This document shows positions 19,047 to 63,341 of a stretch of DNA of 64,000 nt, piece after piece. Source of the DNA: Vairimorpha necatrix (Eukaryota); NCBI GenBank assembly GCA_036630325.1, contig CP142732.1:1-64000 (forward strand), read 5' to 3'. The notes under the pieces are model-generated. The model saw nothing but the letters and a program-made list of their open reading frames with translations. It was not told the origin of the DNA and did no database searches. A program made the translations under genes and the position numbers. The first letter of the stretch is position 1; every line of letters starts with the position of its first letter.

Positions 19047-19116
19047 TTGCCATTGGGAATCGAACCTTGGACCTTCGATATCCCAAATCAAGGTGCAATC
19101 ATTCTGCCAAGCACAC
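19047..19116 (-). pseudogene. Degenerate tRNA(Pro)-like sequence or tRNA-derived SINE head
   Basis: Minus strand has an A box (TGGCAGAATG), an anticodon arm ttgat-TTGGGAT-atcga, variable loop AGGTC and a B box (GGTTCGATTCC). Acceptor and T stems pair poorly. Confidence 0.6.
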
Positions 19117-25827: not shown

Positions 25828-25877
25828 ATGCATTTTCAGCTGTTCTTATTTTTTTCATATTTTGCAAGATTTGTCTT

Positions 25878-25913
<36 letters not shown>

Positions 25914-27933
25914 TAATATAGCAGTCAATAAGGAGCATGGAAACAAGCTGAAGACTATGTGGATAGATGTAAAGAAAGCCTACGACTCCGTAGACCATTC
26001 TTATCTATTAACATGTATTAGCAAGTTGAATCTCCCTCAATGGATAAGTAAATTCTTAGAAGCCACGGTTAAAAGGTGGCACATTGAGATAAAATCAGGA
26101 TCGGAAACGATACTGAATAAGAAGATTGAAAGAGGCATATTACAAGGGGATTCCCTGTCGCCGCTTTTGTTTGTACTATGTATGGACCCGTTGAGCAGGA
26201 AACTGAATTCAACTTACCCAAAAGTAGGAATACAGACTCACGAGAGTGTTTATGTAACAAACCATCTTCTATTTATTGATGATCTTAAGCTCCTAGCAGA
26301 GAACGATGACGTTTTAAAACTGATGAAAGAGGAAACTAAAAAGTTTTTCTCTGCTGTAGGTTTAGAAATGAATAGGAGTAAGTCTGCAACTAACTGTAGT
26401 GATTGTAGTGAAGATGCAGTAGTACTAGAAGGGCATCAAGGATACAAATACCTTGGAATAACAGAAGATGCCTCTAGTGCTATCAAAAGAGAGACTTTTG
26501 AAAAAGTAAGAAGTGAGATCCTACAGAGGGTTGAAAAACTGTGCAAGACTCAATTAAATGGTAAGAATATGATTCGAGCTATAAACGAGCATGCAATATC
26601 AGTAATAAACTATCATGTAGGATTATTAAAATTAGAACCAATAGATTTCAAAAGTCTCGATTTTGATATCCGACAGGTACTTATCAAGTACCAGGTCCAT
26701 CTGCAGCCAGCCTGCAAGGAAAGACTATACCTTCCTAGATCCGAAATGGGCAGAGGCCTCATAAGTATCGAAGATAGAAGCGAAAGTATGCTTCTGAATA
26801 TTTATAAAACATTAGATGGGTCTAGAAATAGCTCACTAAGACGGGCAGCGATACTTAAAGTAGAGGCAGAGAGCAAATCCCACTTGTTTACAATAAACGA
26901 GTATCTAAGGATTAGGTATAGCTTTGTAGGAGAGATAACCCAGAAGATGCTAATAGAATCCCAAAAAGAAGCGCTTTACAACAAAATTAACATAAGGACA
27001 AACCATGGAAAGTTGTTTAAAGCTAGGGACAATGATTTAGTAAGCATTAGGGACTCTTCTACCTGGCTGGTTAAAGGAAACAATCAGGCTAGATCCGAAG
27101 CAATTTACTGCTTCCTACAGGATAGAAATATCTTCTGTGGACAAGAGGGACAATGTCCCCATTGTGGATCTCATAGGAAGACCGTGGATCATTTAGCTAC
27201 CAAGTGTGATCGAATGTTGGGTTTTGATTATATTAAAAGACACAACGAGGTAGTTAGATGCATTCATCTCTTACTATGTATTAAATATGGGCTTAAGAAG
27301 ACAAAGAAAATACGTGGACACTCAGTACAAGAGATCATGGAAAATGATCGTGCAGAAATAAGAGTAGATACGAGAATATCCACTAATATAAAGGTAACCC
27401 ATAATAAGCCTGATATTCTTGTGTTTGACAAGAAGAAGAAAGAAATTTTAATAGTTGAAGTTGGTATAACCAACCAGGATCGACTTACTATAGTTGAGAA
27501 TGAAAAACTAAGAAAATATGACCTTCTTGCAAATGAACTGGGACTAATACATAAATCCCGGACAAGAATAGTTCCTTATGTAATGACATGGGATGGAGTG
27601 GTGACCAAATATCACAGAAAGTACATCAAGGAGCTAGAAATCCAACCCTACCTGGAAGCATATATCCAGTCTATTGTGATGAAGAAGACTCTAGAGTCCA
27701 TCTCTTTGGAACGACGACGAGGATACGATCAGGAGGATGCAGGAGAAGAAGAAGTGGCTAGAGCTGTAAGCGCACTAGCGAATATGGCGACTGTTAAAGA
27801 AGTGGTGTCGGCAAAGGGGAATGAAGCTGCTAAAGTGAAGTTGGAAAACATTAATAATTCCACAGAAACCAAAGTCTGTGAAGAGCTGAATCCCATGAGC
27901 GATACCGGGGAAAGCTGTGCTATGAATATCTAA
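25828..27933 (+). CDS. RT-CCHC-RLE polyprotein, N-terminally truncated; first 27 codons derive from the flanking repeat
   Basis: WIDVKKAYDSV, GILQGDSLSPLLF, LLFIDD, YKYLG, CPHC..H..C, RHN and KPDI..D..IVEV..EK..KY motifs. Confidence 0.9.
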
Positions 27934-35900: not shown

Positions 35901-36146
35901 TCCAATTAATCATATTGATCAAATTTTTATCAATAATAAAATCCTGAAGTTCAGGAACTTACTTGTTTTATCGACTGCTTTGTTGTCACATCTTTTACAT
36001 CTTTCTTATTCTGATGATTGCTTCAACTCTCTTGGGCTTCTTTTAGTAATTTTCTCTTCTCTTAAACACAGGTCTCACTTGTTACCCTTTCATCTTTTGT
36101 GTTTGCCATGTTATACATTTATTTAATAGGAGGTTCAACTTTAACA
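32971..36146 (-). mobile_element. Decayed family-1 Gypsy with 38-39 bp LTRs, copy B
   Basis: LTRs at 32971-33009 and 36109-36146; TSD ttata at 32966-32970 and 36147-36151; VYMDD in ORF 34711-34947; CCHC knuckle at 35701-35660. Confidence 0.9.
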
Positions 36147-42487: not shown

Positions 42488-44465
42488 TGAGGTATTACCC
42501 GGGAGTTGGCCATTCCTCAGATAGCATTCTATAATGCTTCTCCCTGGTATTAAAGTTTTATTATAATTTAAGTTGTATTATTAAATCTGCCTCCTTGGGC
42601 TTTATCTTCCCTTTTCTGGGGATGCATTGATTGATACTGCTGATTTCTAGACTCCTCTGTTCTTCTTGACATATTTTGGTGGGGGTAAAAATAAAAAGAA
42701 AATATTTATATAAAAATAAATTCTAGAAAATTCATTTGGAGGAAAATATAATAATGTGGTAAATAATGCCACATACTACCTTCTCTAAAGGGTCAGCAAA
42801 TTAGAATACGGATTCCTCCGAAATCATCATATAGTTCTTTCCGCCGTTTCCTAGTAATAGCTGGGTAGGATATTTTAAACCTCAAATCAAGGTATGAGTT
42901 CAACTTATCATATTTGAGCTCTCAAATTCACCGTTTATTTCATATCTACATATGCTAAATGGCAACTGCTGCATTTTATTTTTGAGGCAATGTTTTCTGA
43001 AAGTTCCAAGATTTAATTTATTTTTATTCTAATAACTATCATATTTAGATGTTGCCAAATCTTTTACATGTGCATGGTTATCTTTAATTTTATCACGAGG
43101 CTTGCTTCTTTCTTTGTTATTTATTTTAATATTTCTTGAATATATATCATCTGATGGTATCGTATTCCCTGTCCTTTTCACAAAGTCAACTATATTAGTT
43201 AAGACTTTAGCTAGAAGATTGTCTATTTTTTATTCAAATTCCTTTTAATACAATTATCTATATTATTTATTCTTTCATTTATACTTTTCTGTTTATTGAT
43301 GATTTTATTTTCTTTTTGTTTCTGAATTAATAGGCAGTCGGTTTTTTATGTTTTATATCCAATTCATCGTAGGAATTTTTTTTTTATCATTAACGATTTT
43401 TCTTCTTTTTTTATTTCACTATCGTTGGCTTTTGGTTTTCTTAGACGACAATCTCGTGTATCATGTGATCTTGCTCGATGTATAGAGCACCATTATCACA
43501 TTTAAAGTATCTTCCTGTTTCTTCAGGTCTTTCATAAAGCTCTTTCTTAGATATAAATTGCGATATCGTGTCCCAACAGTTTCGCCTATAAAATAATCAT
43601 TTCTTCCAGATCTTGTGAATATTTTAATAGCTTGTTTGTTCCCTTGTTTTTCATTCCTGATTTTAAAACTTCAATGGCAGTTGATCTGCCTAATCCTCTC
43701 TCAAAAATCTGTTTCAATCTAACATCAAATTCCTTTTCGATAAGTTCATAGATATTCCGTATATTTCAATCATCGACTCTATTTTCTCGTAGTAATCTGC
43801 TATACTTCTATAATTTACCTGTTTTACAGTTTCCATCTCTGTTAATAATAAAGCTACATCATTTTTTGGATATCTAAATTCTAGTAGTTCTTTTTTTTTT
43901 TGTTTTTTGAAGCTTTTCTTATTTAGCTTATCTTTCACCTTAGAATCTTCAATCAAAGGTTAGTAGATGAGTCCCATCTGCTCATCAGTCCATTTAATGG
44001 CCGTTCCTAGCTCTTCAAACAGCTCGAGATGCTTTATGGTGCAGTCAAGTTTTACATTTTTCAATTTTTTCTTTAACCACTATTGTAGTTCCTTCTATGG
44101 TTTTATCAAATGTGGTATATGCTTCATCATCATTTTATTTCTCAGTATTATTACTTTTTTCTAATACTAATGAGCTCATTGAGGTATTACCCGGGAGTTG
44201 GCCGTTCCTCAGATAGCATTCTATAATGCTTCTGACGGGTATTAAAGTTTTATTATAATTTAAGTTGTATTATTAAATCTGCCTCCTTGGGCTTTATCTT
44301 CCCTTTTCTGGGGATGCAGTGATTGATACTGCTGATTTCTAGACTCCTCTGTTCTTCTTGACATATTTTGGTGGGGGTAAAAATAAAAAGAAAATATTTA
44401 TATAAAAATAAATTCTAGAAAATTCATTTGGAGGAAAATATAATAATGTGGTAAATAATACCACA
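42488..44465 (-). mobile_element. Internally deleted Gypsy LTR retrotransposon (family 3), no RT visible
   Basis: 286-bp LTRs at 42488-42773 and 44180-44465 (about 6 mismatches); TSD aattc at 42483-42487 and 44466-44470; PPT tagagaaggtagta; empty site near 12519-12523. Confidence 0.93.
43440..44364 (-). pseudogene. gag: gag of family-3 Gypsy, initiating inside the 5' LTR
   Basis: ccccc-accaaaat-ATG at 44364; YPKND...IADYYEKIE resembles YPKYE...IEEYYNEID of family 2; knuckle WCSIHRARSHDTRDC at ~43492-43448. Confidence 0.8.
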
Positions 44466-44589
44466 AATTCATATTTAATATAAAAAAAATATAGTTTAAT
44501 TTCAGAAAATAACATAATAAATATCATTGTTATAATATATATAAACAATCTTTACAAATATATACAACATAATTACTATTATTTTTCAC

Positions 44590-44800
44590 ATAAAAATGAA
44601 TTATAACGAGATATGCTAATGATGTTTTATATTCTAGTATATTCTGAATAGGTTCGCGTTAGCGTCTCCTGTTTGTGGGCAGCTTATCGACTCTTAGTCA
44701 TTTTCAAAGCGGAACCCAAACATCTCTTCGGTAGTCTATTGGAATGCTTAAGTTTGTCTTCTGTAATCATCTTGATGTACGCTTCTACTTTCTTAGAGTA
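44590..44800 (-). mobile_element. 3' fragment of RLE-type LINE (family 2), paralog of 12640-12850
   Basis: gttagcgtctcctgtttgt and gatgtacgcttctac are shared with 31600-31740. Confidence 0.75.
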
Positions 44801-45294
44801 TTTGATAGTTTAACCTATTTTTTATTTTATATAAAACAACAATATTAATATTATATTATATTTTTATTCAAATGTATATATATCTTCTTTATTTTACTCT
44901 ATAAACTAATTTATTTACTTTTTTATATATCATTTTTGTTTAATCATAATATATTTAAAAAAAAATTTTCAAATATTTTCATTAAATGAAGATAATTTCA
45001 GATTCCAAAATATATAAATTAAATATTACAAAAAGATTAGTTTCATTAAATATAATAGACAAGATTAATATGAACCTAGCATCGATAAAGAATATTAGAA
45101 TTCTACAACGCTTGATCTGATGATTTATCCTTCATTTAGTATTTATTGTAAGATAATCAGTTGTTTTAATTATCTTTATCATAAAAAAAAAGCAAAATTC
45201 AATACCGACAACCAAATTACTACACACATTCTTTTACATGGCCAACATTTTTTTCTAAATATATTTTTTTATACTAAACTCTAGATTTTTACTG

Positions 45295-45326
<32 letters not shown>

Positions 45327-48300
45327 ATTATTCTTTTTATTTATAGAATTTTATATCATATATACGTTTTTATGATATTTTTATTTATTAAACTCATTAA
45401 AATAATTCATTATAATAGAATGACAGTCTTTAATTTGGTATTAATATAATGTTCTAATTATTTCTAACTTTACATTTGAAATATTTTGTTCTACTGATTC
45501 ATCTTAATTATAACTGTAAACAGTTTATATGATAATTCAGAATTTATTTATTGCTAATATATTATCTAGAATTGTATGATAACTAATAAGGGCTTACAAA
45601 AACCGATATATAAGCTTTGTCAGCATGCTATTACAATGTTGTTATTCGAAAAAAATATACTATTATCATCATTTAGTGCATGCACAAACTTTCAAATTTT
45701 ATTATATGCTAAATTTCTTATCTAATAATTTCGCTTTCGATTGTATTGAATTTTTCGTAAAGTTAATGATCTTTCATTAGATAATATTTCTAGACATTCT
45801 CTTCTTTTCTCATAATATTACTCTCTTCCTAACTTTTATTTTTTTCCATGAAAGGTAAGAGAAAACTATTACTTAGAATTTTGTTAACAATGAATTTGTT
45901 CTCATACGTTTAGTGTATAGAGTTTATTGATAAATACCAATTTGAATTTGTATACAAACTACAGAAAGTACATATTGTACAATTTTTTCGTTTCAGAACA
46001 TATGTTTTTATCTATCTTTATATTACATCGTCAAGATCCACTGCTGATAAGAAACTAGGATTTAAATAAATTCTAAATTGCAAATCCATGTACATATTTA
46101 ACTTCCACGAATAACACTTATCATTACATGAATCTTTTACGCTACTTCTAACATTACTAAAATTCGATCCTGCTTTCTACGAACTTCTTTGACCACCAGT
46201 TATTCGAATTTTGGAAAATGGGGATATAGAATCGTATAAAAGAAAAAAAAGATGATCCTAGATAAATTCTTTAGACGTTAATTTGCCTTTAACAAATTTC
46301 ATTAAACACTGCTTACGTAATGTTTTTTTTAAAAAAAACTTGCCTTTTTTGAAAACACGGTCGATGTAAACATCAATTTTATTTCTAGTTGTAAGTGAAG
46401 TTGTTCATTTATAGTAAAGTTCCATTTTTTCATTTTTTAAAGCTCAGTGGAACATAAAACTTTTTTATGATTACCAAAAAGAACTTTGTCGTGGGGGGAA
46501 CAAAAAAGTTTTTTCAAAAAAAGTAAATCTTAATAGTCATTATGGAAAAGGCTTAGTTACAATGTTTTTTTCTAGCGACGTTAATCTTAAAGGTAAAGGA
46601 CTGGGCATGCATTTTATATCTCATAAATATTTTCAAAATGTTCTACATATTTAGTATCTACTACAAAAAATATAATTTTAAAATTAAATATTAAAAGCTA
46701 CTTTATACAAAATTACTTATTATTTTTTATACAATAATCATCTCTAATTTATATATAGAACTTTCGATTTCAGTTTATTAATACTCTATATGTAAATTTT
46801 CCTTATATTACACTATTGATTATAAAATTGTTTTAAAAAACGGTTTGTTATTTTGTTTTAATTTTAATATTTTTTTATCCACTCTATATGTATTGCTGAT
46901 GCAAGTTTTCTATTCAAATTTATTAACTTAAAAATTTCTACATAGATAGTTTTATACTATAATGCAAGTTGTTTTTGATTTTTACGAGTGTGTTAGATTT
47001 GCATCATTTTGATCCTTGTATTATATTTTTATTGTAGATACGTTTCTTGTCATTTCAAATAATAATTAAAAAATATAAATACTTGAATTATTATATTTAA
47101 CATGATGCATTTTTTAACTAAGAATTTATCTTATTTTTGATTTTACACAGATACATTGAATTAGGCGGCTTTTACTTATGTTCTTGAATATAACAAGTTG
47201 ATTTTATTAATTCGACTTGAATCGTACGTATTAAGCGCATTTCATCTAGGTTTTATAAGGTAATTTTCATATTTATTTCTTGTCAAAATTTTATCTACAA
47301 CTGATATTTATTAAAAGATTACATTTCTATTTAAAAATCAGAAATACTTTAGCAACACAAAATTCATAAAGTTTATCAAATGTGTAACCTTATGTTTTGT
47401 TATACGATAGAAGACTAGGTTAGGATTTACGGAACAAAAAAAACAATGACAGTATTACTAATTTAGTAATGATATATTTGATCGTTGGTTTTTATACGAG
47501 GAATGTAAACCACTGATTCATCTAAAATAAATATTGGACTGTTTCTTCAAAGAAATTTATTCTTTTATTTTTTAAATATTAATTTCTCGCATATATATAT
47601 TTTCGCCCTAAATATTATAAATGGCTTGAACTTAAAATCAAAATTGTTTTTGTAAGAAACGACATTTCGATAATCTCTCTTAAAAGGATTTGTTTTTCTG
47701 CCAAATTAAAATTGTGTACGGAATTTGGTTTTAGAAATTAGAAATAAGGAACAAACGAGTTAATTTGTTTCATGCATACTTTATTTTTTGTCTAATTATT
47801 TTTAAAGTAACTTATAATGTGAATATAATGTCCTTTTACTTTTTTTTATAGAACATAAATAAAATATGTGCATTTTTTATAAAAATTTAATTTGCAACCA
47901 AATCAATCCCAGAAAGATGCAGTCAAAATTTATGTCTGCAATTATTAAATCCATGTATAATATCTAATGTGAACAATAAATTTGATCTAGTGTACAGTTT
48001 TATAACTATTTTTAGATCTGTAATCTTTTTATTTGTTTTCTTTTCTATTATATACATCATCTTATCTGTTTGAATTATGTATGATTTAGATGGTCTAATT
48101 ATTTGCAAACAGAAAGTATATCTATCAAGGGGTGAAATTCAAAAATATACCAATTCAATTGTTTTTTAGATATGTTATATTTAAATGATCATTCACCCCA
48201 TCTTATGAAAAATATTTTCATCTCTGGAATATTCAAAAAATATAGTATCCCAAAATGAATTTTTTCCATTTTTAAGATTATATAATTTTACAATAAAATG

Positions 48301-51023
48301 TTTACGTAATGAAATCTAAACATATCAAATATTAAATTGCAAAATATATTACTCTATTGTATATATGTTGTAAAAAATGATTTTATTTATATTCAAATGC
48401 ACAAATAATTATAATATCGTGTTTCTGACTTTATATTTCCTTTATTTTTCAACTTTTGTTCATTTTACTATCTTAAATAACTGATTATTTGTCTTCTATT
48501 TTTGGTTTTGTAAGTCAAAATTACTATATCAGTCCTATAGAATAAAGTTAATAGTATATTCACACTGACTTTCTATTCTTAGAGGATAAATGAAACGTGA
48601 ATTTTATTTTTTAATTTTCTCTAATTTTGTTTTTAGATTTTAACTATTATATTGCCAAAGAGAACAATCATTTAATTGTTTACAATACTTAATTTTCATC
48701 GATTAGGTTCATTATAATAAATTGTTTATTCTTTTTACATATGAATATTTTTTCTTTATAAATTAATCGATATTATAATAACTCAGAAACAAACATTATT
48801 TCTTATTATATATCATTAAAAACGTTATTGTTGATTATGTAAAGTCTGTACGATTAAAATATTTGATGCAATTATTTCTGGGGTATTTCATTCTTTTATA
48901 CATATATACATCTGGTTGTTGCAATAAATATGAACTTATTACCAAGATTTTTATATCTTAGTATATTATGTATATTTTTATTAAGCACTTGCCATGTTTA
49001 TTATATCTACACATATCTTCGTAAAAGCTTATAAATTTTGCTGAGATTTTGAATTTTTAGTATCATATAATTTTTATTTCATTTTATATATAGACTTTGA
49101 GGTTGATTTACGCCCTAAAGAAGGAATATTGTTGTTTTCTTTAATGTGTTTTTTCAGCGCTTTTCGATCCTTAATGTTTAATCTTTCCTAGTCTTTTCCT
49201 AAAAGTGTCTTGTTTAAGTAAAATGCTAATGACTAATTGAAGATATTTAAAACACAAGAAACATTTGTTGAAAAAATCTTTATATGTCTTTATTACATAT
49301 ATTTAATGCTCATTTTGCCATTTAAAGTCAATCCTTGTTTTTGTCTTTCAATATACTTGGCAATAATAGCTATTCCTTTAGGGAGAGCACGTCTTAGTAT
49401 GCAAATGACTCGTAACACATAGATTATTCAATTTAGTAGTATTTATGGGAAATCTGTTCAAAATATAAATTTCTTAAATCATCTAGTACGGTTGTTAAGA
49501 TAAATAGCTCCAAAACAATGTATTTAACAGTGTTTGTTGAATAAACGATTAAACTTTATTATTTTTGTTTCTATATTATACATACTAACTTTACTTTGTT
49601 TGCAAGCGATAGATATAATTTTAATTTTTCAGTCGCAAAAAATATTAAATCTATTTTTGAAGTTTGGTACTTACAATACTGTTTATTCTGAATTTTAATA
49701 TCAGATTATTTTTGTCTTGTCAATATTATTATCTCTTCTTAAATATATTTACATATACAAATAAATCTACTCTTAATAATTAGTTAGTTGTTTAGAATGT
49801 CAAGAATAATTACTTTCAAGCCTTCATGATATAGCTAAGTTCTTTTGTAATGAAATATTTTGGGGTGATTATTTTCCTCAAATAATTATCATGATTTTCT
49901 TCATCATCTTATTACATTTGTATATATATTGTCAAGTTTGGAAAATCTAAAATTTAAATCACTTAAATTAGAAATTATTGCATTTTAGACTAATTATTTT
50001 TCCATAATTTTTTTTCTGTCTTATTGTATATATATATATATATGTATATAAAATTTTCCTTATTTTAAAAATGAAAATTTAAAAACTTTATATTAGAAAT
50101 TATTGCAAGTAAGACAAATATTTTTTCATGATTTTTATCAACTTCTTATTTTTTATAAATGTGTATAAATTCTTTTCAATAATGAAAAAAACAAATCAAA
50201 ATTATGTCATTTTAGATAATTTATTTTTTCATGATTTTATTCTTATTCTTGCTGTTTAAATAATTTAACTTGTCATCCTTGAATAATTAAAAATTTAAAA
50301 GTTCAAAAAACATAATTTTGACTTATAGCCTTTATTTAATTTAATATTTCGTATTCTTGGTGCGTAGGAGAGAAGATGAAATCTTATACTTGAACTCAAA
50401 AGCAATTGAGTTAAAAATCCAATTGATATAGGGTATTATTATTCACTTAACTTCTACCAAATACTTTCGCTGCACTATCTCCGACGTAACCATTTAGATT
50501 TGATGAGTTTATTTTTATATACAAGCCTCTAATCGCATCATTAAATCAAAAAATATATTAAAATGAAGATTTTAAAACCTCTGTATAGATTTATCGTTTT
50601 AATCTAGTGTCGATATTATATATATAAATCATCTAGATCTCAGATGGCTCTTCAACTACAAAGACACTAAAAGCAAACTTATTAAACTTCTTTGTCTTTA
50701 ATGAAATAATTGAACATATCTCCATCTTATACTATATCTTGTTTGTATAAAAACAAACTTCATAAATTTCTACATCAAGAGTGCCATAATTGGCTTTTAG
50801 GTCCCTATAGAATATACAGCTATGGTATTATGAAACACAGAAGGACAAATTATATGTAATAAGAATTTAAAGTGTGAATGTATTTAAGAAATTAATGATC
50901 AATTCATACAAGAGATACTTTTCAAAATATTTGTTTAGTCTATCAATTTTGAAATATTATATTTAGTGACGTCTATATGTCCGCCAGTAGATATCTTTAT
51001 ACTTAAAATAAATTTAAATTTTC

Positions 51024-51092
51024 TCTTACCGGGAATCTCACCTTGGACCTTCGAAATCCTAAATCAAGGTGCAACCATTCTGCCAAGCACGA
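51024..51092 (-). pseudogene. Degenerate tRNA(Pro, AGG)-like sequence or SINE head, copy B
   Basis: A box TGGCAGAATGG; anticodon loop TTAGGAT; B box mutated (GGTGAGATTCC). Confidence 0.5.
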
Positions 51093-51842
51093 TTATTTTA
51101 ATTTTTTGTTATCCTTTAAGAAAACCAATTATAGTTCAACTTTATTTATTTTTGTTTTTCTTTCTATGCATAAAGAAAAATTTCAAATTAGTCAGATTAA
51201 AAGATCATTAATCTGAATGAATCAAATAATAGAACAATTTACAATGTTAGTTTTATGCTTTCTTTTGGAAAATAAATTATATAAGATTTTCTTTGATCCA
51301 AATATACATTTCTATATATATATACATGTTATACTAAAAAATAGTAAACATTTTACACTGCAAAAACAAGTATATGTCCTATATTATATACAAAATACTT
51401 TCATATGTGACCGCACAATTTAAGATTTACTGGCATCGTATTTTAATCTCTCTATTATATCTGGCAATTTTGTTATTATTATTTTCTATACCTCTAAAGT
51501 AAATTTTTTTAAATAATTTTTTCAACAAGTTAAAACTGTCATTTGTAAGAATATGTTTAATATGTATTTGATCTGCTACAACTATATATGAACTACATTC
51601 TTTTAAGAATTTAAACTAAAAAATAATAAAAACATATTTATGTGATTTAACTAATATTCTTTATTGAGATTTTGTTTTTCTTAGATACTGTGATGTACAT
51701 TACTACAACACATGGACAGATGTCTAAAATATGTCAACCGTTTCGGATGGCATGTCAAGTTGGGTCACACAATCAAACGAAAGTTGCATGGTCGTTACTA
51801 CATTCGTAAGTACGCCAATGTTTGTGTTTAGTGTTGACAACA

Positions 51843-52170
51843 TATAAAAGATTTATTGAGTTAATTTATCATTAAAGTTAGATTGGCACAGTTTCCCCCT
51901 GTATCGCTCACTAGATTCGGCTCTTTATAGACTTTGGTTTCTGTGGAATTATTTATGTTTTTCAACTCCAAATTTTGAGCTTCATTCTCGTATACCGACA
52001 TCGCTTGTTCAACAGTCGCCATATTCGCTAGTGCGCTTAAAGCTCTAACCACTTCTTCTAATGCATAATCTTTATCGTATCTTGTTCGTCGTTCCAAAGA
52101 GATGTTTCTCTGGAGTTTTCTTCATCACATTAGACTGGATGTATGCTTCCAGAAATGTTTAGATTTCTGC
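51843..52170 (-). mobile_element. 3' fragment of family-1 LINE, copy B
   Basis: ORF 51861-52097 matches the C-terminus of the 701-aa ORF. Confidence 0.9.
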
Positions 52171-52559
52171 AGAATGTAAATAAGATTTTAAAATATTAAT
52201 ATATATGTACACAATAATAATATAGTTTAGAAATAATAGATTCCTGAACTTTTAAAATTTTACAACTGTAACTTTTATTAAGGAAAAAATATTTTATTTT
52301 GACATTACGATTGATTTTTAGTAAAAATTTAATTAAATTTTGAATTTCTTCAAAAATGTCAGCAGAAAATAAAAAATTTAAAGGCCGTATTGTTTTTCAA
52401 AAAATACCATCTGGTCATCTTTTTAATTGAGTTGTTACTCTGTAGACAAAGAAAAATTAGCAATAAATTTCAAAACAAGATCGTCGAATAAAGAGTAATT
52501 AACATTTTTGTTTAGTTTTTGATTGTATATTTTTTAATTAATTTATAAAGTAAAATTTG

Positions 52560-53633
52560 GACTAAAATCAGCTTTAGTGTAAAAAAAATGGGGGGTCAAA
52601 ATTTTTAAAAAATTGCCCCTTTTTTTAAAAAACGAAGGGAAGAGAAAACTTCAGAAAAAAAATAAAATATAATTAAGATATAAAAATGAATGAAAATTAA
52701 CTTTAAAATAAATAAAATATATCAAAAACATAATTTTAATAATGCTTTGAAGATGTCTTCGCTCTCATTTCTTTTAATCATATATAGAACTAAATATATT
52801 TCAGCAAATTCATATGTTCTACACCTATTGGGTATAGAGGCTTTTAAAAACCTCCAATTTCCTTCGATGATGTTTGTATGGACACCTGTTTCATTATCTC
52901 TAAATGTTTGACTGTGATTTACAGTTCTATGGTCCGCGTAATGGCTTTTTAACGTTATATAGGCCTTCCACATATCGGAATGAATGATAGATTTCAAATT
53001 TACATGCTTAAATAAGATCGGCAGCAATGTATCCTTGTTTCTTTTATTGATTATGACAAATATTATTTTCTTTTCTGTTGTTCTTTCTACCATCCCAAAA
53101 CACCAAAATTCTTTAACTAATTTTCCCCTGTGGTATTTATTCTTACCTATTTTACTTTCGTCGATCTCCACTATGATATTTTCGCCTCCTATTTGTTTTG
53201 TTTTATTTATATATTTTTCATAAATTTTTAATTTATATAATTTCTCAAGTGTAGCACTTACATTTTGCATATTACAGTCCAAAATTTTAGAAATATGCGC
53301 CATTTTAAGTCCCATTGTTCATAGATTAACAATTTTCAGCATAAGAATATGATCTATCTTACTATTTGAAAATAGGTTATTATTCCAAATTGAAAATCTT
53401 TGGCCGCATTTGGGAAATTTACATCTCAAATAAAATGTTTCGTTAGATACTATAGATGTATCCCAGCCACAAATTGAACATTTCTGTTTATATTTCTTTC
53501 TTAGCAGATGTTCATAAAAATCTTCAATTTCTTCTTTACTCAGCATTCCCTTCGTTTTTTAAAAAAAAGGGGCAATTTTTTAAAAATTTTGACCCCCCCC
53601 CCCATTTTTTTTACACTAAAGCTGATTTTAGCC
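52560..53633 (-). mobile_element. Merlin DNA transposon 2
   Basis: ~80-bp TIRs (52560-~52641 and ~53547-53633); 8-bp TSD aaaatttg at 52552-52559 and 53634-53641; empty site at 20562-20569. Confidence 0.95.
52722..53546 (-). pseudogene. Merlin transposase with a single in-frame TGA at 53321-53319
   Basis: Both ORFs are in one frame (CTA TGA ACA ATG). CSIC/CKFPKC zinc finger; VEIDES, IHSDMWKAY, TVNHS and HTNIIEGNW motifs. Confidence 0.92.
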
Positions 53634-53869
53634 AAAATTTGTTTTATTTTTGCTATTAAATCCTTTAAATTCAAAATATACGCTCTTTTAAATTTTTGTT
53701 TATTTTAAATTTCCCTCCTAAAATATTAAATAAAATTTTTTTGTTTATGGGCAATGATAAATCAAGATTGGATTGGTGTATAAAAGAGATAAAATAAGTT
53801 TGGAGTGACAAAATATTTCTGAAATTAATACTACTATAAATGGAGGATTATACAATATCTAATTCAAGA

Positions 53870-54173
53870 CAGTCAATTTTTTTTCTAAGGTAATAATCTC
53901 TAAATTTTATGCTCAAGATCTTTTTTTATCAGCTAAAGATGATGATACGAATTACATACTTCAGAAATTTGAGTACCATTGGTTATACCAACTTCAATGG
54001 ACAAGACCTTATAGCGCTTGCGCATCCACGTGTCGCGAGAAGTTGAAAAGTTAAAATATAAATGTATATTAAAATTTCCGAAGTATTAAATTGTATAATA
54101 TTCATTAGCTGATAAATAACATCATGAGCATAAATATTTAAAATTACATTAACAGTGAAAAAAACACAGGCTG
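53870..54173. mobile_element. MITE-like element, copy B of 20803-21108
   Basis: Same inverted arms and GC-rich core. Confidence 0.65.
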
Positions 54174-55125
54174 CCACAAGAATTGTAATTTTACTTTTTA
54201 CTATAATTATAATAGAAGCTCTTCCGCTACATTAGCTTTACCCAAATTTAGCTATATAATCTATTGATTGATAAACATAAGGATCACCGGTCATATATTT
54301 CTAGTCCGTAGAAAATAATGATTTTAATGATCGCATTTATACCTAATTATTGTTTAATCAAACATAAGTATGATTATTACATAATCATTGAGAAGAATGT
54401 ATGCGAAAACTTCTATAGATATAAGGTTACCATTATCTGAATAAATGTATCAATTATTAAAAGGGATATTAGAATTAAGATTAAAATTATGAATATTAGA
54501 TTATTTGGAAACAGTTTTAAGTAGAATAAAGGTGTAATTTTAGACATTTCGAGTATTTAAATAATCCTACTTGCTAATATTATTTATTGAGCATCAGTCT
54601 GATGAATTGTGTGATATGTGTAAACAGGAATATTTTGATGATGATTATTCTAGTTTTTTTATTTATGATTATGAGAATTTAAATAGATAATTTATTAAAA
54701 CTTTTAGAATGTTTAAGATTTTATATGTCCCTTCTATATACTGATATAAAAAATGTGAAAATTAAAAACGTTATCATATTTAGTGTTATAACACTATACG
54801 ATTAACAATGAATATTTTTAATTAAGAAGTATTTATAAATATTCCTAATTCTCAATTTGCTTTTAATTTAAAACAGATGTATAAGGATAAATTCTAGAAA
54901 TATCGAAAACAAAATATTAAACAAAAAAGTATTTTTTATATATATTAGAAATTGTTATTAATGAGGTTTCTATATAAAAGAATACAAGAAATATTAGTTC
55001 AAAATGTTGAGTCCTTTTTACTTTTTTTTGATCTACTACTGATTTACGAGTATATATTATACGATCAGATATAAAATATTTTCTCTAATAGAAAAATACT
55101 AACATAACAATCAGATATATATAAA

Positions 55126-55172
<47 letters not shown>

Positions 55173-55399
55173 TTCGTTTTAGTTAAAGTGGTCTAATCAT
55201 CTCCTGAACAGGTTTGCCAATATTATCTTATATTAAATGTAAGCTTTTAAAACTATCCTTTATTAAATTTAATTTTGATCTCGTAAAATCATGAGATATC
55301 TTAAGTTCAAGTGTTATAACTAATTTTATAATATCCTATATTTGGTCGCAAAATTCTATGTTATACTACCATAAGATATCGTTAGAATATTAATATATA

Positions 55400-55612
55400 A
55401 TTTATTTGGGTATAATATTCGGCTTATTAATTATTTTTTACAAGATACGCTTACAGTCTCATCTGGCAGTTCCAGGACTTCCTTCTGAGATTCACTCATT
55501 GGGCTCTCGAAACCCCCTTCCTGATCTGTATCAAGCCCATGTCTGGCTGACATAGTTAGGCTTTCTAAAGTCATTTTAAGGACTCTTGACTGTATATATG
55601 CTTCCGTGTTTA
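55400..55612 (-). mobile_element. 3' fragment of RLE-type LINE (family 3)
   Basis: TEAYIQSRVLKMTLESL resembles LEAYIQSIVMKKTLESI; AATAAA on the minus strand near 55405. Confidence 0.8.
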
Positions 55613-56258: not shown

Positions 56259-56291
56259 GTATATAAATAAATTTTTTCTTTACCCCCCATT
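56259..56291 (+). promoter_or_regulatory. Microsporidian-type core promoter (TATA-like element plus CCC motif)
   Basis: gtatataaataaattttttctttaccccccatt immediately precedes the ATG. Confidence 0.7.
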
Positions 56292-57938
56292 ATGTTCATC
56301 TTACATGTCTTCTATATGTTTGTTTCTACACAAGCAATTTATAGATCTCTATGTAATAAAACCACGAAAGGGGTCAATCAAAAAATCGACGGAGGAGATT
56401 ATCGAATGCTAGATACTACTAAAAATTATGGTTATGCAGACTTATGGCATTATGAAAATAAGATAATAAGTTTTTCTTTTAAAATATTAAACTTTGAGGA
56501 AATAGTACCATCAGTAGAAATTGGATTTATAAATATTAATTGTGAGGGAAAATCTTTAGATATTATTCTTAATGAATATGAAAGAAAATTGATAGAAATT
56601 ATGAACAAATATAAATTATATAAGGTCTTTTTAAACTATATAGCCACTGATTTAAACGAATGCATATATTCTAATGAAAATATCATTATTAAGGACATTA
56701 TAGAAGGAATCAGAAAAATAAATGATAACCAAAATAATACAAATAACGAAAACAAATTTTTGCATCAAAAAACTATTCAAGCTTATATTAATGAGGAAAA
56801 ATCTATGATTCATATGATCGAAGAAGCTCCCTTAAAAACAAAATACTACAGATGTATAGCTAATTCATATGTTTCACCTAGGTATGATTCGAATGACGAC
56901 ATCATATGTATCAGTGTTCTAGTTTATATAGAAGAGGCTTACTTTTACTTCGAATTTTCCAAAGTCGAAATGCTGGACATAGTAAAACAATGTCTAAAAG
57001 AAAAGAACGACATTTCTTCCAAGTGTTTCGATTTATACAAAGATGCTTTTTTTTCTTCAGCTTTTTCTAATAAAAGTGTGAGATTTTTCACAGAAAAGAG
57101 GGGGAAAGTTCCGAATACTCTACGTCAGAATGAAAATTGCAAAATAATAAAATTATTAAGAGATGAGCTAGGTTTATTGAAGTGTCCTCAGAATAATAAC
57201 ACTACAATTAATCCAGTGCAAGAAAATAATTTGGAAAGCAGGAAATATGCAGAAAAAATGCAAGTTTTAATATCAAAAACAGAACACGCGGTCATCGATG
57301 CGTTTAATATTCTATTGAAAGAAAAAGAAATTGGGTTTCTCGTCAAAAGAATTTTGGATAGATCAAGAGGTCGGTTGAATATATTTTTCGGACATATATT
57401 AGTTTTCGATGAATTAATAGGCACAGAGGATTTAGAATGCCTAATCGAAAATAAAGGGAATCTTAACAGGAAAGCAATCATATCAAAGATATTTAACAGT
57501 AATAGGGACCAATATAGATATATTAAGGTATTTTTATTCGTTGAAGCAGAAACTTACATTAACAACGATGACGATGACGCCGCTGAAGGATCTTTTAAAA
57601 CTTTGAAAGAAATTGGAAATATTATGAAAGATAATCTCAGAAACGAAGATGCAAATGAGCAAAGTTCTCAATATTTGAATTTAGTTGATATAATGAATGA
57701 AGTAATTGTAAAACAAAGTGAAAACTTTGAAGTTTTTAGAATACTAAATATGACCAATTTTATTAAATTATTAGTCAATTCAAGTTTCAACGAAGACACA
57801 TTTTATACATATGAACGATATGGAGTAGATAAAAATGAATTCATAGAAATTTTTAAACTAGATCCAAGGAAAGTAGAAAAGGATATCAATACGATTGAAG
57901 AAAAACTAGCAGAAATTGCTGAAGAAACAAGAAAATAA
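56292..57938 (+). CDS. Hypothetical 548-aa protein, probably secreted
   Basis: Long intact ORF; CCC motif upstream; hydrophobic N-terminus MFILHVFYMFVSTQA; AATAAA overlaps the stop. No domain recognised. Confidence 0.85.
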   Translation: MFILHVFYMFVSTQAIYRSLCNKTTKGVNQKIDGGDYRMLDTTKNYGYADLWHYENKIISFSFKILNFEEIVPSVEIGFININCEGKSLDIILNEYERKLIEIMNKYKLYKVFLNYIATDLNECIYSNENIIIKDIIEGIRKINDNQNNTNNENKFLHQKTIQAYINEEKSMIHMIEEAPLKTKYYRCIANSYVSPRYDSNDDIICISVLVYIEEAYFYFEFSKVEMLDIVKQCLKEKNDISSKCFDLYKDAFFSSAFSNKSVRFFTEKRGKVPNTLRQNENCKIIKLLRDELGLLKCPQNNNTTINPVQENNLESRKYAEKMQVLISKTEHAVIDAFNILLKEKEIGFLVKRILDRSRGRLNIFFGHILVFDELIGTEDLECLIENKGNLNRKAIISKIFNSNRDQYRYIKVFLFVEAETYINNDDDDAAEGSFKTLKEIGNIMKDNLRNEDANEQSSQYLNLVDIMNEVIVKQSENFEVFRILNMTNFIKLLVNSSFNEDTFYTYERYGVDKNEFIEIFKLDPRKVEKDINTIEEKLAEIAEETRK

Positions 57939-58293: not shown

Positions 58294-58992
58294 TGTCACA
58301 GTTCGGAGCGGACGCCAGGGGTAAAAAATTAAAAAAAATCTCTTCAGTGAGGATCGAACCAAAAAATAAGAACAAATAAATGTTCGTCTTAAATGATAAA
58401 CAAAGTTTTGTCTCGATTTTTTTACGGGTAAATTTTTGCTTTTTTTTTTAATAATGGGAGGGAATATTGAAAAAAAGGAGAAAAATAAAATAAACAAAAT
58501 TTTTAGTACTTTATTCATTACCAAGCAACCTTAGATCTCTAGTACTTATTTCTTCATTATAATATCATTATCACTTCTTTGCATAATTTTACTTTATTAA
58601 ATTGTATTATGTCTATTACAATACCAGTCTGTAAAAAGACAAAAACTTCTTGTCTTTCATTGTTATTCAATTTTATTTTCATGCCCTTAAAATTAAAGAA
58701 ATTTTAAATACAAATTACAAATAAACATCAATTTTTTTTAAATTTTTTACCCTTCTCAAGTAAGCATTTTCCCTTGCGTCCGCTCCGAACGGGTATTTTT
58801 TTTTTTATTTTTTACCCTTTTCAACTAAGCATTTTCCCTGGCGTCCGCTCCGAACGGGTATTTTTTTTTTAAATTTTTACCCTTTTCAACTAAGCATTTT
58901 CCCTGGCGGTCGCTCCGAGCGGGTAATTTTTTTTTAAATTTTTACCCTTTTCAACTAAGCATTTTCCCTGGCGGTCGCTCCGAACAGTGACA
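58294..58992. mobile_element. Non-autonomous TIR element with TGT...ACA ends and 5-bp TSD (Ginger-like)
   Basis: TIR tgtcacagttcggagcggacgccaggg / ccctggcggtcgctccgaacagtgaca; TSD ataat at 58289-58293 and 58993-58997; no transposase ORF. Confidence 0.85.
58741..58985. repeat. Four 65-bp subterminal tandem repeats containing the TIR core
   Basis: tacccttttcaactaagcattttccctggcgtccgctccgaac at 58748, 58813, 58878 and 58943. Confidence 0.92.
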
Positions 58993-59279
58993 ATAATTTA
59001 TTAGCATAGATCATAAAATGCTTCTCTTTTAAATTAGTGTGGTATTTCTCAGCGGGACCTTCCCCGTACTGAGAAAACTCTCTACTATATTTGTTATAGT
59101 GTTTTGATTATATTTAATATAATTTTTACTGTGGTTAATATATTTATTGTTATCATGGTTCTTGTTCATTCTCTCTGAAATACTTGCCCCTAAACAAATT
59201 ATTTTTATTTATACAAAAAATAATTCTAGAAAATTCGTTGAGATTTTTGACATCTCAACAATTCAAAAATCCCATGTGG

Positions 59280-60233
59280 TTAATACCACATACTACCCTC
59301 TCTAACCAACTTAACATTTTTGACGTGAGTCCATCCATAATCATCTGATAGTTTGATCCAAAATCCCTTTGCTCCAACTTTAATCACTTTTTGTATTTGC
59401 GGTTTAAATGGGGGTTCTAATTTTCGGGCTCTAAAATTTCGCTTATAAACCAAGTCTCCAACATTAATTTTTTTCTTAAATTTTTTCTTTTCATATATTA
59501 TTTTTCTTGGTTCATATATTCCTAGGACGTCATAGAAATCATATCCTTTGGCTAAGGCTACTGGAGAAGCTTTTATTGTCCTGTTATAATTGACATTAAT
59601 ATTATTCTCAGTTTTATTCACTACTTGTTTTAAACTCTTTCCTTTGTTTATAGTTAGCGAAAACGATATGTATTTATTTAATCTTTCTGAAATGCCGTTT
59701 GATGATGGCGTGTATTCAGGTACTAATATTTGCTTTATTTTTTTATTTATAAGGTAGTTTCTTAATTCTTGGTTGTCGTACTGTTTGCCATTATCGGATA
59801 TAATGTACTTTGGGCTTTCAAATCTTTCAATCCATTCATCAATAGCTCCAATGACTTTCCTCGCATTAACTTTTTCAAACACGTATAAATTCGTAAATCT
59901 CGTACATACGTCTGTTATGGACAGTATGTATCCTGTCTCTCCTAAAAAATCCGACTTATAATCTTTAACATTAAATGGACCATATATGTCCGTTGAAATT
60001 CGTTCAAATGCTTTCCTACTTTCGATGTTATTATTTTTGTCTATTTTATAATTTTTTATCTTTACTCTAGTACATGTTGTGCAATTTTTAACAACTTCAT
60101 GTATTTTCTTAACAATATTTTTTATATATAAATAGTTCTTTATATTATAATACATACAGGTAATTCCTCTATGTCCTCCCAACTCATGTATTGTTTTTAA
60201 AAGTTCAACAGATTTGTTATCGTCTATAATCAT
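59280..60233 (-). CDS. Integrase (frameshifted relative to RT/RH), ending inside the 3' LTR
   Basis: HELGGH...CTTC; STDIYGP, ISDNGKQY and NGISERLN (DDE triad). Confidence 0.95.
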   Translation of the reverse strand: MIIDDNKSVELLKTIHELGGHRGITCMYYNIKNYLYIKNIVKKIHEVVKNCTTCTRVKIKNYKIDKNNNIESRKAFERISTDIYGPFNVKDYKSDFLGETGYILSITDVCTRFTNLYVFEKVNARKVIGAIDEWIERFESPKYIISDNGKQYDNQELRNYLINKKIKQILVPEYTPSSNGISERLNKYISFSLTINKGKSLKQVVNKTENNINVNYNRTIKASPVALAKGYDFYDVLGIYEPRKIIYEKKKFKKKINVGDLVYKRNFRARKLEPPFKPQIQKVIKVGAKGFWIKLSDDYGWTHVKNVKLVREGSMWY

Positions 60234-62200
60234 CTTTCCTTTGTTGTCAAATTGTATTTTATTGTCAACTTTAAGACTAGCATTATAACTTCTTGCTCAT
60301 AATATTTTCTATTTTCATCTATACTTGAATATAAACATCTGGATAAAACATCTGCAACGACATTTTTTTTACCTTTTATGTGGTATATTTTATAATTGTA
60401 TTCGTTCATTAGCAGTTTCCATCTGTTTATTCTAGATGCAGAACTCTTGTTATCAAATGTACAGTTATGACTATCGGTGTGAATTTCTACGTAAGTCCCT
60501 TGTATTATTTTCTTAAAATGAATCATGGACAGCAGCATAGCAAGATATTCCTTTTCCACTATGCTATAGTTCAATTCTGCGCCATGAAGTTTCTTCGAGT
60601 AATAACTTATAACTCTATCTTCCTGCCTCAACACACTTCCAATTCCTGTGTCAGAAGCATCTGTCTCTAATATAAACTTTTTTTTATAATCAGGGTATTC
60701 AATTTTTGCATTTGTTTTAATCTCATTTTTTATCTTTTCAATTGTTTCTTTCATTTGTGTTGAGAAAACAATTTTTTTATCGTTTTTTAATAAGTTGGTA
60801 ATATCATTTACTCTTGTAGACAAGTTTGGAATAAATCTGCGATACCAATTTATTACTCCTATCAACTTTTGAATATCTCTTTTAGTTCTTATTTCTTGAC
60901 TGAAAATTTTATTGTTTAGACAATTAGTATTAGGAAATATTCCCTTTTCGTTTACCTTAAATCCAAGTACGTCTATTTCTTGGACAAAAAACTTAGACTT
61001 TTCAAAATTTATTTTGACTTCACTTTTTTGTAATGTTTTCAATGTTCTAAGTAGTAATTTTTGATGCTCTTCTTTTGTATTGCTAAATATAACAATATCA
61101 TCAATGTATACGAATAAATTTGGTATCTCCGAAAGTATGGTCGAAATATAACGTTGAAATAGTTTAGGTCCGGGCTTAATACCGAAGGGAACTCTTTTGT
61201 ACTCATATTGCTGTCCTAGTAACATAAAAGCGGTGTATTTTTGACTTGTTTCTTCAATTTTTATTTGGTTGAAGCCGTTTTGTAAGTCCAGCTGCGAAAA
61301 ATATTGATTTTTCCCCATTTCTAATAAACAGTCATCTATTTTAGGCAACACCCAAGGATCATCTTCCAACATTTCATTTATCTTTTTATAATCTACAACT
61401 AGTCGTAAGTCATTATTTTTCTTTTTTATAAAGAATGCCGGACTAGTAAATAACGAATTACTTTTCTCGATTATACCTTCTCTAAGTAATCTGTTCATTT
61501 CTTCACGACCTTGTTGTACATATTTAACAGGTACTGGGTATCCTTTAGACTGGATAACTTTAATATTATTCTTAATGAAAAATTTTGCACATGGTGCTTT
61601 TATACCTGAGAATTTACAATTTTGGGTCATGTAAAACTTTAAGACTTTATTTAACTCCGGATAATCCTGAATAATTGACAAACAAACCTTTTCACTAAGT
61701 TGATCATTTAATAGCTCTTCTGTAGTTCTTTCACTTCCCTTCATTGCTACTATGTTATCCTCATTAATACTAACTATTCTTTTTTTATAATTGATCATAC
61801 AACTATTATTCACTAAAAATTCATTACCTAAAATAAAAGGTACGGGTAATTCTTGAAGAACATAAAAATCTACTAAAAATTGCCTTTTTGCAATTTTAAC
61901 ATCTAGTGTAATTTTCTTTTTGCTAGTTTCGTTTTTTCCTCCCCCAAATTTTAATAGTATGGGTTTAGTTTCTTCAACTGTTAATTTATATTTATTAACG
62001 CTTTCTTCATTGACGTAATTGTAATTCGAACCAGTGTCAATAATTAAATTGATTTTGTTGTTCTCGAACTCTCCTTCAATCTCAATATTCTCTAGGGTTT
62101 TACATTTTTCTTCATTAATAATTAGATTCCTTGTTTCATTATATGTTTGTTTACTATTATCCTCTCTGTTATTTTTAATATTTTGTTTTTGATTTAAAAA
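60230..62200 (-). CDS. pol: pol: aspartic protease, reverse transcriptase, RNase H
   Basis: IIDTGS at ~62044-62027 and ILGNEFL are in frame with ORF 60230-61813; LRLVVDY, YIDD, ETDASD and ADVLSR motifs. Confidence 0.95.
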   Translation of the reverse strand, partial: FLNQKQNIKNNREDNSKQTYNETRNLIINEEKCKTLENIEIEGEFENNKINLIIDTGSNYNYVNEESVNKYKLTVEETKPILLKFGGGKNETSKKKITLDVKIAKRQFLVDFYVLQELPVPFILGNEFLVNNSCMINYKKRIVSINEDNIVAMKGSERTTEELLNDQLSEKVCLSIIQDYPELNKVLKFYMTQNCKFSGIKAPCAKFFIKNNIKVIQSKGYPVPVKYVQQGREEMNRLLREGIIEKSNSLFTSPAFFIKKKNNDLRLVVDYKKINEMLEDDPWVLPKIDDCLLEMGKNQYFSQLDLQNGFNQIKIEETSQKYTAFMLLGQQYEYKRVPFGIKPGPKLFQRYISTILSEIPNLFVYIDDIVIFSNTKEEHQKLLLRTLKTLQKSEVKINFEKSKFFVQEIDVLGFKVNEKGIFPNTNCLNNKIFSQEIRTKRDIQKLIGVINWYRRFIPNLSTRVNDITNLLKNDKKIVFSTQMKETIEKIKNEIKTNAKIEYPDYKKKFILETDASDTGIGSVLRQEDRVISYYSKKLHGAELNYSIVEKEYLAMLLSMIHFKKIIQGTYVEIHTDSHNCTFDNKSSASRINRWKLLMNEYNYKIYHIKGKKNVVADVLSRCLYSSIDENRKYYEQEVIMLVLKLTIKYNLTTKER

Positions 62201-63064
62201 ACATTCTCGAGTGTTGTGTGATCGAGATTTATGTATCGAACACCACTTGTTATGATTGATATTTCCTTGAATATATACCTTATTGTGATTACCTTCTCTC
62301 GGTTTTTCATAAATTTTTAAATTCTTAATCTCGGTTTGGATTACGATTCCTTCTTTCTAATTTTTTTAAATATCCTATAATATTTTGTAAAGGTTCTCCT
62401 TCCAAATTCTGTTTCAGCAATTCTAAGCTAGTAAATTGCCCTAATCCATTTTCGAAGATCTCGTTCATTTTTCTTTCCCTTTCTTTACTGCTGTAATTGT
62501 TAACGTTACTTAAAATGGTAATCTTTTGATCAATTTCATTGTAATATTCTTCAATGGTTACAAAATTTTCTTGTTTGATGTTTCCAATCTTTTACATAAT
62601 AATTTTATTTCATATTTCGGGTAGATAATTTCAATTAATTCCTTTCTTAATTTTATATAGCTTTCATCGGATAAATTATGTTTCATATCATCGTCAAGTA
62701 AACTTTTATATACTAAGGCCATTTGTTGGTCTGTCCAACTATTGCTTTTTGCAATTTTTTCGAATTCTTCCAAATGCTGAAAGTTACATTCCTTTTTTAT
62801 ATTTTTTATTTTGTAAATTTTTTCCTTAATGTTTACATTAGTGCCTTTAATCGTATATTCAAATGTACAATATCTTTCTTGATGTATCTCATATGTAGAT
62901 TGTTTCTCCTGAGATTTTCTTATTGAATTCAATGTGGTATTTCTCAGCGGGACCTTCCCCGTACTGAGAAAACTCTCTACTATATTTGTTATAGTGTTTT
63001 GATTATGTTTAATATAATTTTTACTGTGGTTAATATATTTATTGTTATCATGGTTCTTGTTCAT
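62200..63064 (-). pseudogene. gag: gag of family-2 Gypsy; starts inside the 5' LTR, two frameshifts, CHHC knuckle
   Basis: ORF 62558-63064 plus continuations in other frames; WCSIHKSRSHNTREC at ~62246-62201. Confidence 0.85.
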
Positions 63065-63341
63065 TCTCTCTGAAATACTTGCCCCTAAACAAATTATTTT
63101 TATTTATACAAAAAATAATTCTAGAAAATTCGTTGAGATTTTTGACATCTCAACAATTCAAAAATCCCATGTGGTTAATACCACAATTAGTTTCATTTTA
63201 AAAAAAAATTTCCCTCTGTGGTTAATACTCAATCCTCTTAAGATGAATTAAGTCTCTTTGTGACCTCCCGTAGTTATAAGTGTTATTGTTCTTCACATTA
63301 ATCTTTTATGTGGGTATATAAAAAAAGAAAAATCGGTATAT

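Follow-up and report, generated by a model that had tools for sequence, protein, structure and literature searches.

Does the Gag protein of a retrotransposon begin inside the element's own long terminal repeat (LTR)? The question is raised by element 2, which lies near the right end of the window analysed here, the first 64 kb of one contig of the AT-rich genome of Vairimorpha necatrix (15.0 Mb, 12 contigs). The original prediction, made from the letters alone, held that Gag starts within the 5' LTR of this element, reads across the LTR boundary, and shares its LTR-encoded peptide with a second family, represented in the window by element 3. The features of element 2, a Ty3/gypsy element on the minus strand (LTRs 63185-62933 and 59290-59038) with the target-site duplication (TSD) CTAAT on both sides, are as follows.

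62933..63185, minus strand: 5' LTR, 253 bp, TGTGG...CCACA, the 3' 132 nt of which are Gag codons 1-44
63170..63185, minus strand: U3-end hairpin formed by the first LTR bases, predicted from the MFE of the first 40 nt
63102..63108, minus strand: TATAAAT, a putative TATA-like element 44 nt before the ATG
63082..63085, minus strand: GGGG, a promoter motif of the microsporidian CCC/GGG type, 21 nt before the ATG
62933..63064, minus strand: LTR-encoded Gag N-terminus, an N/K/H-rich low-complexity arm followed by a conserved short helix
62983-62957, minus strand: codons of the conserved helix IVESFL..G in the LTR-encoded part of Gag
62941..62970, minus strand: predicted U5 RNA hairpin, GC-rich, sharing its bases with the coding frame (-15.6 kcal/mol and z -3.3 for the last 45 nt of the LTR)
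62922..62933, minus strand: perfect 12-nt palindrome ATTGAATTCAAT at the primer-binding-site (PBS) position, taking in the last LTR base and read as T-L-N-S-I
62558..63064, minus strand: first gag piece, 168 aa, after which the gag-pol frame is broken
60230..62356, minus strand: PR-RT-RNase H piece of pol (domain matches gag-asp_proteas, RVT_1 and RT_RNaseH)
59280..60296, minus strand: integrase piece (Integrase_H2C2, rve), the frame of which crosses the polypurine tract (PPT) and stops inside the 3' LTR
59291..59303, minus strand: PPT with a 5-nt spacer ahead of the 3' LTR
59038..59290, minus strand: 3' LTR, with one difference from the 5' LTR over 251 nt

Element 3 is a non-autonomous, decayed element of 1978 bp with the following parts.

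44180..44465, minus strand: 5' LTR, TSD GAATT, with an ATG at 44364 after CCCCC (44377-44373) and a single frame break ahead of the conserved helix
44169..44180, minus strand: perfect 12-nt palindrome AATGAGCTCATT at the PBS position, creating an in-frame ATG directly after the LTR
42488..42773, minus strand: 3' LTR, TSD GAATT

Direct LTRs with TG...CA ends and a TSD, together with a PPT before the 3' LTR, were found as in other Ty3/gypsy elements, and the domain order of element 2 (PR-RT-RNase H, then IN) is that of Ty3/gypsy and not of copia. Both elements of the window are broken, the reading frame of element 2 being interrupted at several places.

Elsewhere in the window, TAGG and TTAGG units in irregular mixture form a telomeric array on the minus strand (1-2850), which is directly followed by a decayed gypsy element. 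A decayed Ty3/gypsy copy from a different family, with RT and integrase pieces, lies at 3060-6200, and a second copy of it is found about 30 kb away at 33985-36000. A segmental duplication (12519-23600 versus 44466-55400, spaced by about 32 kb, 86-91% identical) is interrupted in one of its copies by element 3 and an IS1595/Merlin-like transposase. The ORFs at 25822-27933, 22381-22926, 52722-53318 and 56271-57938 comprise one for a non-LTR-type RT, with 159-bp tandem repeats on either side, two for IS1595/Merlin-like transposases, and one of 555 aa that matches nothing in Pfam. Four 65-bp tandem copies (58667-58985) adjoin the insertion site of element 2.

The architecture that had been predicted for the two LTRs was recovered in the sequence. 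The ATG at 63064 is located exactly 44 codons from the LTR end of element 2, its frame reads ...ITNIVESFLSTGKVPLRNTT|LNSI, and it is preceded by both TATAAAT (63108-63102) and GGGG (63085-63082); the ATG at 44364 of element 3 follows CCCCC as described, with a single frame break in both LTR copies before ..SIIECYLRNGQLPGNTS|MSSL. Low nucleotide similarity between the two LTRs was likewise borne out, with no blastn match at E<1e-8 and 144/236 identical positions in a global alignment. Over 17 aligned codons, 11/17 first, 14/17 second and 7/17 third positions were identical. In L063, a related copy elsewhere in the genome, the LTR frame stays open over the 76 codons before the LTR end. The boundary residues LNS and MSS, which had been noted earlier, are the translation of the palindrome that occupies the tRNA primer site.

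The Gag piece gave 150 scored matches in the genome and the RT gave 111. A total of 78 stretches were fetched, mainly for their long open frames and only 10 of them from the ~33 most distant RT matches, so that young copies are over-represented among them. Together with the two window elements, 80 stretches were examined and 66 curated LTR pairs were obtained; 10 stretches had no LTR pair, 3 had no clean ends, and 5 entries were dropped (3 with a truncated or mis-set 3' LTR, 1 false pair and 1 duplicate in the wrong orientation). The inner element of L087 was left out of the curated set, and ten LTR boundaries were adjusted by hand after inspection of the sequences. The 5-bp TSD is perfect in 61/66 curated pairs. 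When the longest frame crossing the LTR end was considered, an in-frame ATG within the LTR was present in 61 of the 66 pairs, and the LTR-encoded part of Gag measured 23-66 codons in all but two of these ATG-carrying copies. Among the five pairs without an LTR ATG, four have broken frames, and L067 is open over 69 LTR codons with no ATG. Gag also starts in the LTR in 7/7 copies of a distant, tRNA-primed clade, so both gypsy clades of this genome have the layout. The original prediction had called it atypical for LTR elements; this was an overstatement, given its presence in both clades here and presumably in Ty1 as well. Complete elements are about 4.0-4.3 kb long and very compact, with a single ORF.

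Several copies depart from the usual form. In one family (L080, L081, L089, L097b and L164) the LTRs start with TA instead of TG and the TSDs are perfect, and the LTR of the L180 family ends in TA rather than CA. Many copies of 2.0-2.8 kb (L059, L061, L062, L064, L085, L086, L088 and others) have LTRs that are 99-100% identical and long open gag frames, and lack RT; they are apparently recently mobilised non-autonomous elements.

Whether R/U5 is protein-coding, as had been proposed, was examined through pN/pS over the LTR-encoded segment, and the claim stood for one part of the segment only. For the last 20 LTR codons, pN/pS in the Gag frame was 0.43 (Fisher p=6e-5; DNA alignments of 24 within-family LTR pairs, which are not fully independent of one another), and in the other frames of the same pairs it was 1.48, 0.93 and 1.86. 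Protein-guided alignments gave 0.41 for these codons versus 0.28 for gag proper. Substitutions in the coding LTR were distributed 68/73/108 over the three codon positions (third-position excess p=0.003), and those in U3 60/64/67, without such an excess; indels in multiples of 3 made up 4/7 in the coding part versus 1/21 in U3. Among 22 diverged LTR copies, conserved residues are written with varied synonymous codons (E with GAA 9 and GAG 10, Y with TAT 7 and TAC 8, S with AGY 8 and TCN 4, that is with both serine blocks, and G with all four codons). Selection at the protein level acts on the last ~20 LTR codons and is confined to the Gag frame. For the N/K-rich first part, clear selection was not found: pN/pS was 0.66 (p=0.03), and one non-coding U3 control frame gave 0.65 (p=0.025). 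Since its signal is no stronger than that of the U3 control, this start of the peptide may be hardly more than an open linker that also bears the poly(A) signal. pS was 0.093 in the last 20 LTR codons and 0.173 in gag; this reduced synonymous change, together with the U5 hairpin, indicates overlapping nucleotide constraints. A chance figure of 1.8/23 open frames was set aside as evidence because the segments had been defined from open frames. Taken as a whole, the LTR of these elements is very probably coding.

The fold of the encoded protein was modelled on a relative (27 aligned sequences, mean pLDDT 76). The model places a short helix at residues 25-32 (block pLDDT 83), inside the 40 LTR-encoded residues of this protein, and a capsid-like fold at about 60-240, downstream of the helix. 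The best capsid comparison, with PNMA2, had Z 8.1 and rmsd 5.4 over 156 aligned residues, which is moderate for a helical domain; nearly all of the top 28 structural matches were retroelement capsids, with a best Foldseek E of 0.02. At these moderate scores, the Gag is predicted to carry a retroelement capsid fold. Because the helix lies upstream of this fold, the LTR would encode an arm ahead of the capsid and not the capsid itself, and our guess is that the helix serves in assembly or interaction.

The original prediction further held that there is no untranslated leader. Microsporidian genes are reported to carry CCC or GGG motifs just before the start codon and to have 5'UTRs of <7 nt (PMC2803860). 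In the elements, a CCC or GGG run occurs <=35 nt from the ATG in 17/23 families and AATAAA or ATTAAA occurs in the coding part of the LTR in 21/23, both as raw counts. Judged from these motifs, the elements appear to share the promoter style of their host, and the missing leader is more probably a very short 5'UTR of the host type.

The frame that leaves the LTR passes through the position at which a PBS is expected, and a palindrome was found there throughout one clade. Immediately behind the 5' LTR, 59/59 copies of this clade, which belong to 21 LTR families, carry a perfect palindrome 12 nt or more in length, as against 0/66 at the 3' LTR flank and a background of about 0.2% per site. Excluded or unresolved copies (L058, L063, L096 and L160) also carry it, and decayed family-2 copies (L092 and L008/L094) have imperfect palindromes. 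The 12-mer occurs in 11 distinct sequences; 4 of its 6 pairs vary, with complementarity always kept, the central pair varying among AT, GC, TA and CG, and pairs 3/10 and 5/8 being invariant. In one family the palindrome is translated in a different frame, giving FEFK rather than LNS, so the constraint must lie on the nucleotides. The central pair could not pair in the loop of a hairpin and yet stays complementary, and pairing between two molecules therefore fits better. An isolated 4-bp hairpin has an energy of 0 to -1.1 kcal/mol versus -9 to -16 kcal/mol for the AU-rich 12-bp duplex. The bases after the palindrome pair with the end of U5 beyond the level of permuted families (49 vs 31 +/- 3.4; 0/20000 permutations), although this extension amounts to 0-1 bp in 6/21 families, element 2 among them. 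That the palindrome functions through pairing is quite likely.

No tRNA primer could be assigned to this clade. At the 5' LTR of its 59 copies, tRNA 3' ends were matched over 2-4 nt at best, and no site started with TGG, the set tested comprising 50 distinct tRNA genes with none for His, Tyr or Val; against the same set, internal tRNA segments matched over 5-8 nt at best, with varying tRNAs. As 11 different palindrome sequences exist, no single tRNA could fit all of them. The 7 copies of the other clade have an ordinary PBS with a match of 10-14 nt to tRNA-Ser or tRNA-Leu. In an RT tree of 22 rows, midpoint-rooted with no outgroup, the two clades are split by a 100/99 branch. The 12-mer begins 1 nt after the LTR in 18/21 families, a register that the PBS of the tRNA-primed clade has in 5/7 copies. 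For a primer, the start one base within the LTR that is seen in element 2, element 3 and their nearest relatives is awkward. Two further features go with the palindrome. A stem from LTR base 1-2 is predicted in 21/21 families of the palindrome clade (z -1.0 to -6.0 vs mononucleotide shuffles), and in the tRNA-primed clade a weak U3-end stem is predicted in 2/7 copies with z no lower than -1.5. A short spacer between the PPT and the 3' LTR also accompanies the palindrome in its clade (5 nt at element 2, 59291-59295). The U3-end hairpin and the spacer may, with the palindrome, be parts of one altered replication scheme.

With nothing else left to prime, we propose that the packaged RNAs anneal at the palindrome and that one of them is cut to prime the other. 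Transcription would begin a few to ~20 nt ahead of the LTR ATG, in the manner of host genes, and with such a start nearly all of R-U5 would be translated. The gag-pol frame opens at the LTR ATG, which in most cases has a TATA-like element and a CCC/GGG motif ahead of it, and passes through U5 and the primer-site position. Two genomic RNAs in the particle would then anneal through the palindrome as a 12-bp antiparallel duplex, often lengthened where the bases after it pair with the end of U5; the RNase H of RT would probably, as in Tf1, cleave one strand at the 3' edge of the duplex, and the freed 3'-OH of this strand would prime minus-strand synthesis on the partner RNA. We lean slightly towards the palindrome supplying the primer in trans, a reading drawn from sequence patterns; cleavage, priming and the way in which the R-U5 tail of the primer is dealt with are proposals within it. 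The cut strand would keep a long R-U5 tail, and plus-strand transfer would accordingly need a further, unspecified step. A coding LTR combined with palindrome-based priming in trans is the best explanation of the whole that we can offer, held with a little more belief than doubt.

The same palindrome could instead be a dimerisation or packaging signal only, comparable to the retroviral DIS or Ty1 PAL1/PAL2, with the coding LTR unaffected and some other RNA acting as primer at this site or close by. The RNA of Ty1 is described as dimerising via palindromes near its 5' end (PMC6844567), a fully self-complementary centre suits any intermolecular duplex, and the tRNA set tested was incomplete; the Ty1 and retroviral palindromes, however, accompany a tRNA PBS, whereas here no PBS remains, the palindrome occupies the PBS register in 18/21 families, and eleven sequences cannot all match one host RNA. 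We consider this reading unlikely, though it is the strongest of the rivals.

Less probable still is an intramolecular fold-back, in which the RNA is cut after the palindrome and primes on its own U5 by means of a stem of 4 bp, a loop of 4 nt and the U5 pairing. MFE folds often show the palindrome hairpin extended into U5, the flank extension fits a hairpin as well as a dimer, and a similar hairpin idea has been proposed for GalEa. Yet the hairpin alone is far weaker than the dimer by the energies given above, the four loop bases are self-complementary in all 11 variants, which a loop does not need, and a cut after the site would part the sole template from the rest of the genome.

A role in DNA, as a symmetric site for integrase, RT or the second strand transfer, is very improbable: a perfect palindrome in which certain T and A letters are invariant (pairs 3/10 and 5/8) does resemble the site of a dimeric protein, in a clade that also has its own U3-end hairpin and post-PPT spacer, but the missing primer would be left unexplained, the palindrome is internal to the element and outside the end processed by integrase, and its letters are free to vary at four of six pairs. 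Least of all do we credit the idea that the LTR peptide is a by-product of RNA or DNA signals in U5 with true translation starting at or after the LTR end, for although the palindrome yields an ATG as the first post-LTR codon in the element-3 group and one other family, and the lowered pS speaks for nucleotide constraints, selection is frame-specific, conserved residues are kept across synonymous codons including both serine blocks, and the first post-LTR Met lies deep in the capsid domain in many families (71 codons in for element 2, 112 in another).

Relatives in other species were sought at the protein level. The N-terminal helix pattern was looked for in the best 150 of 1069 protein-library relatives and was present in 41 of these 150, being N-terminal in 31. 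In 29/31 of the proteins with the N-terminal motif the junction peptide is compatible with such a palindrome, in one register, compared with 14/112 control windows; as these are proteins and not DNA, the palindrome in relatives of other species is a matter of compatibility only. The source labels of the relatives include Nosema granulosis, Vairimorpha apis, Dictyocoela muelleri, Hepatospora eriocheir and Mikrocytos mackini. One library protein, labelled Vairimorpha necatrix, shows 100% identity with the ORF of an element among those fetched. Scans of metagenomes for related DNA returned nothing except L198, a GC-rich gypsy element with no Gag-profile match or LTR pair, scans of viral contigs and genome contigs revealed no related element DNA, and a separate homologous-protein search gave one match. 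P0033 is labelled as a transcript of Mikrocytos mackini, a rhizarian parasite, and P0024 as an Aeromonas MAG protein; these labels point to horizontal transfer or contamination. P0002, with the source label ERO1, matches the Gag profile over residues 107-425 and is probably a gene model fused with an element. That a Ty3/gypsy clade spread over microsporidia primes in trans, with dimerisation and priming as one event at a site that is also read as Gag, is a proposition on which we find ourselves evenly divided.

If the host-like start is right, retrotransposons in reduced parasite genomes take on the short-leader promoter style of their hosts, and superimpose their promoter, poly(A) signal and integrase end, together with RNA hairpins and Gag codons, on about 130 bases. 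A coding LTR makes LTR and ORF annotation of such elements easily wrong. By itself it amounts to strong compaction, but with precedent, and the palindrome outweighs it in importance: a primer site keeping just its symmetry over 21 families hints at an undescribed, tRNA-independent start of reverse transcription.

The precedent is Ty1, whose GAG, we take it, begins within U5 and has about a dozen codons in the LTR. The elements described here resemble it in having the gag start codon inside the 5' LTR with a frame under selection, and differ in superfamily, Ty1 being a copia element, and in the length of the coding part, presumably about a dozen codons there versus 23-66 in most copies here. 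The short 5'UTR of Ty1 is given as 53 nt (PMC3592414), with replication signals inside the GAG region, and Ty1 differs further in keeping a 10-nt tRNA-iMet PBS (PMC3681743), with dimer palindromes separate from it.

Closer by host are the microsporidian Ty3/gypsy clades with a single polyprotein (Parisot et al. 2014, PMC4202319), which share the host group, the domain order and the one gag-pol ORF. Three element groups are described in that paper, the main text of which contains neither 'primer' nor 'PBS'. In the literature searched, mostly open-access main text, we found no description of a palindromic PBS in gypsy or microsporidian elements, a point for which the element tables of PMC4202319 may also be relevant; nor did that literature yield one of gag starting in the LTR for either. 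It led only to papers on GalEa, Tf1/Tj1 and Ty1.

The Tf1/sushi group (Tf1 and Tj1; PMC7175516, PMC4600332) likewise comprises Ty3/gypsy elements without a tRNA primer. In Tf1 of S. pombe, RNase H is described as freeing a self-primer of ~11 nt from an RNA duplex (PMC7175516); this primer is the 5' end of the transcript, so the LTR holds the complement of the PBS, whereas no Tf1-type complement was found in the LTRs here (best 7-9 of 12 in 25 rows).

The nearest parallel is the Conserved Hairpin Site of the fungal GalEa Ty1/copia elements, a palindrome of unknown function that replaces the PBS (Donnart et al. 2017, PMC5445492). As described there, GalEa also lacks a tRNA PBS and carries a short palindrome directly after the 5' LTR, which takes in the last A of the LTR as in elements 2 and 3. 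The GalEa palindrome is of 10 nt, mainly in two versions and non-coding; that of the present gypsy elements is of 12 nt, in 11 covarying versions, and inside the gag frame. GalEa has in addition a second complementary copy (CHSeq2) 12-41 nt downstream, and no copy of this type was found within 70 nt downstream here (best 6-9 of 12). The two palindromes are likely to have arisen independently. If priming in trans is true, it would be a further mode beside priming by a whole tRNA, by a half-tRNA and by self-priming of the Tf1 type, and would offer an idea of how the GalEa site functions; with 11 natural compensatory variants, and the tRNA-primed clade as a control in the same genome, the elements described here make the GalEa question directly testable.
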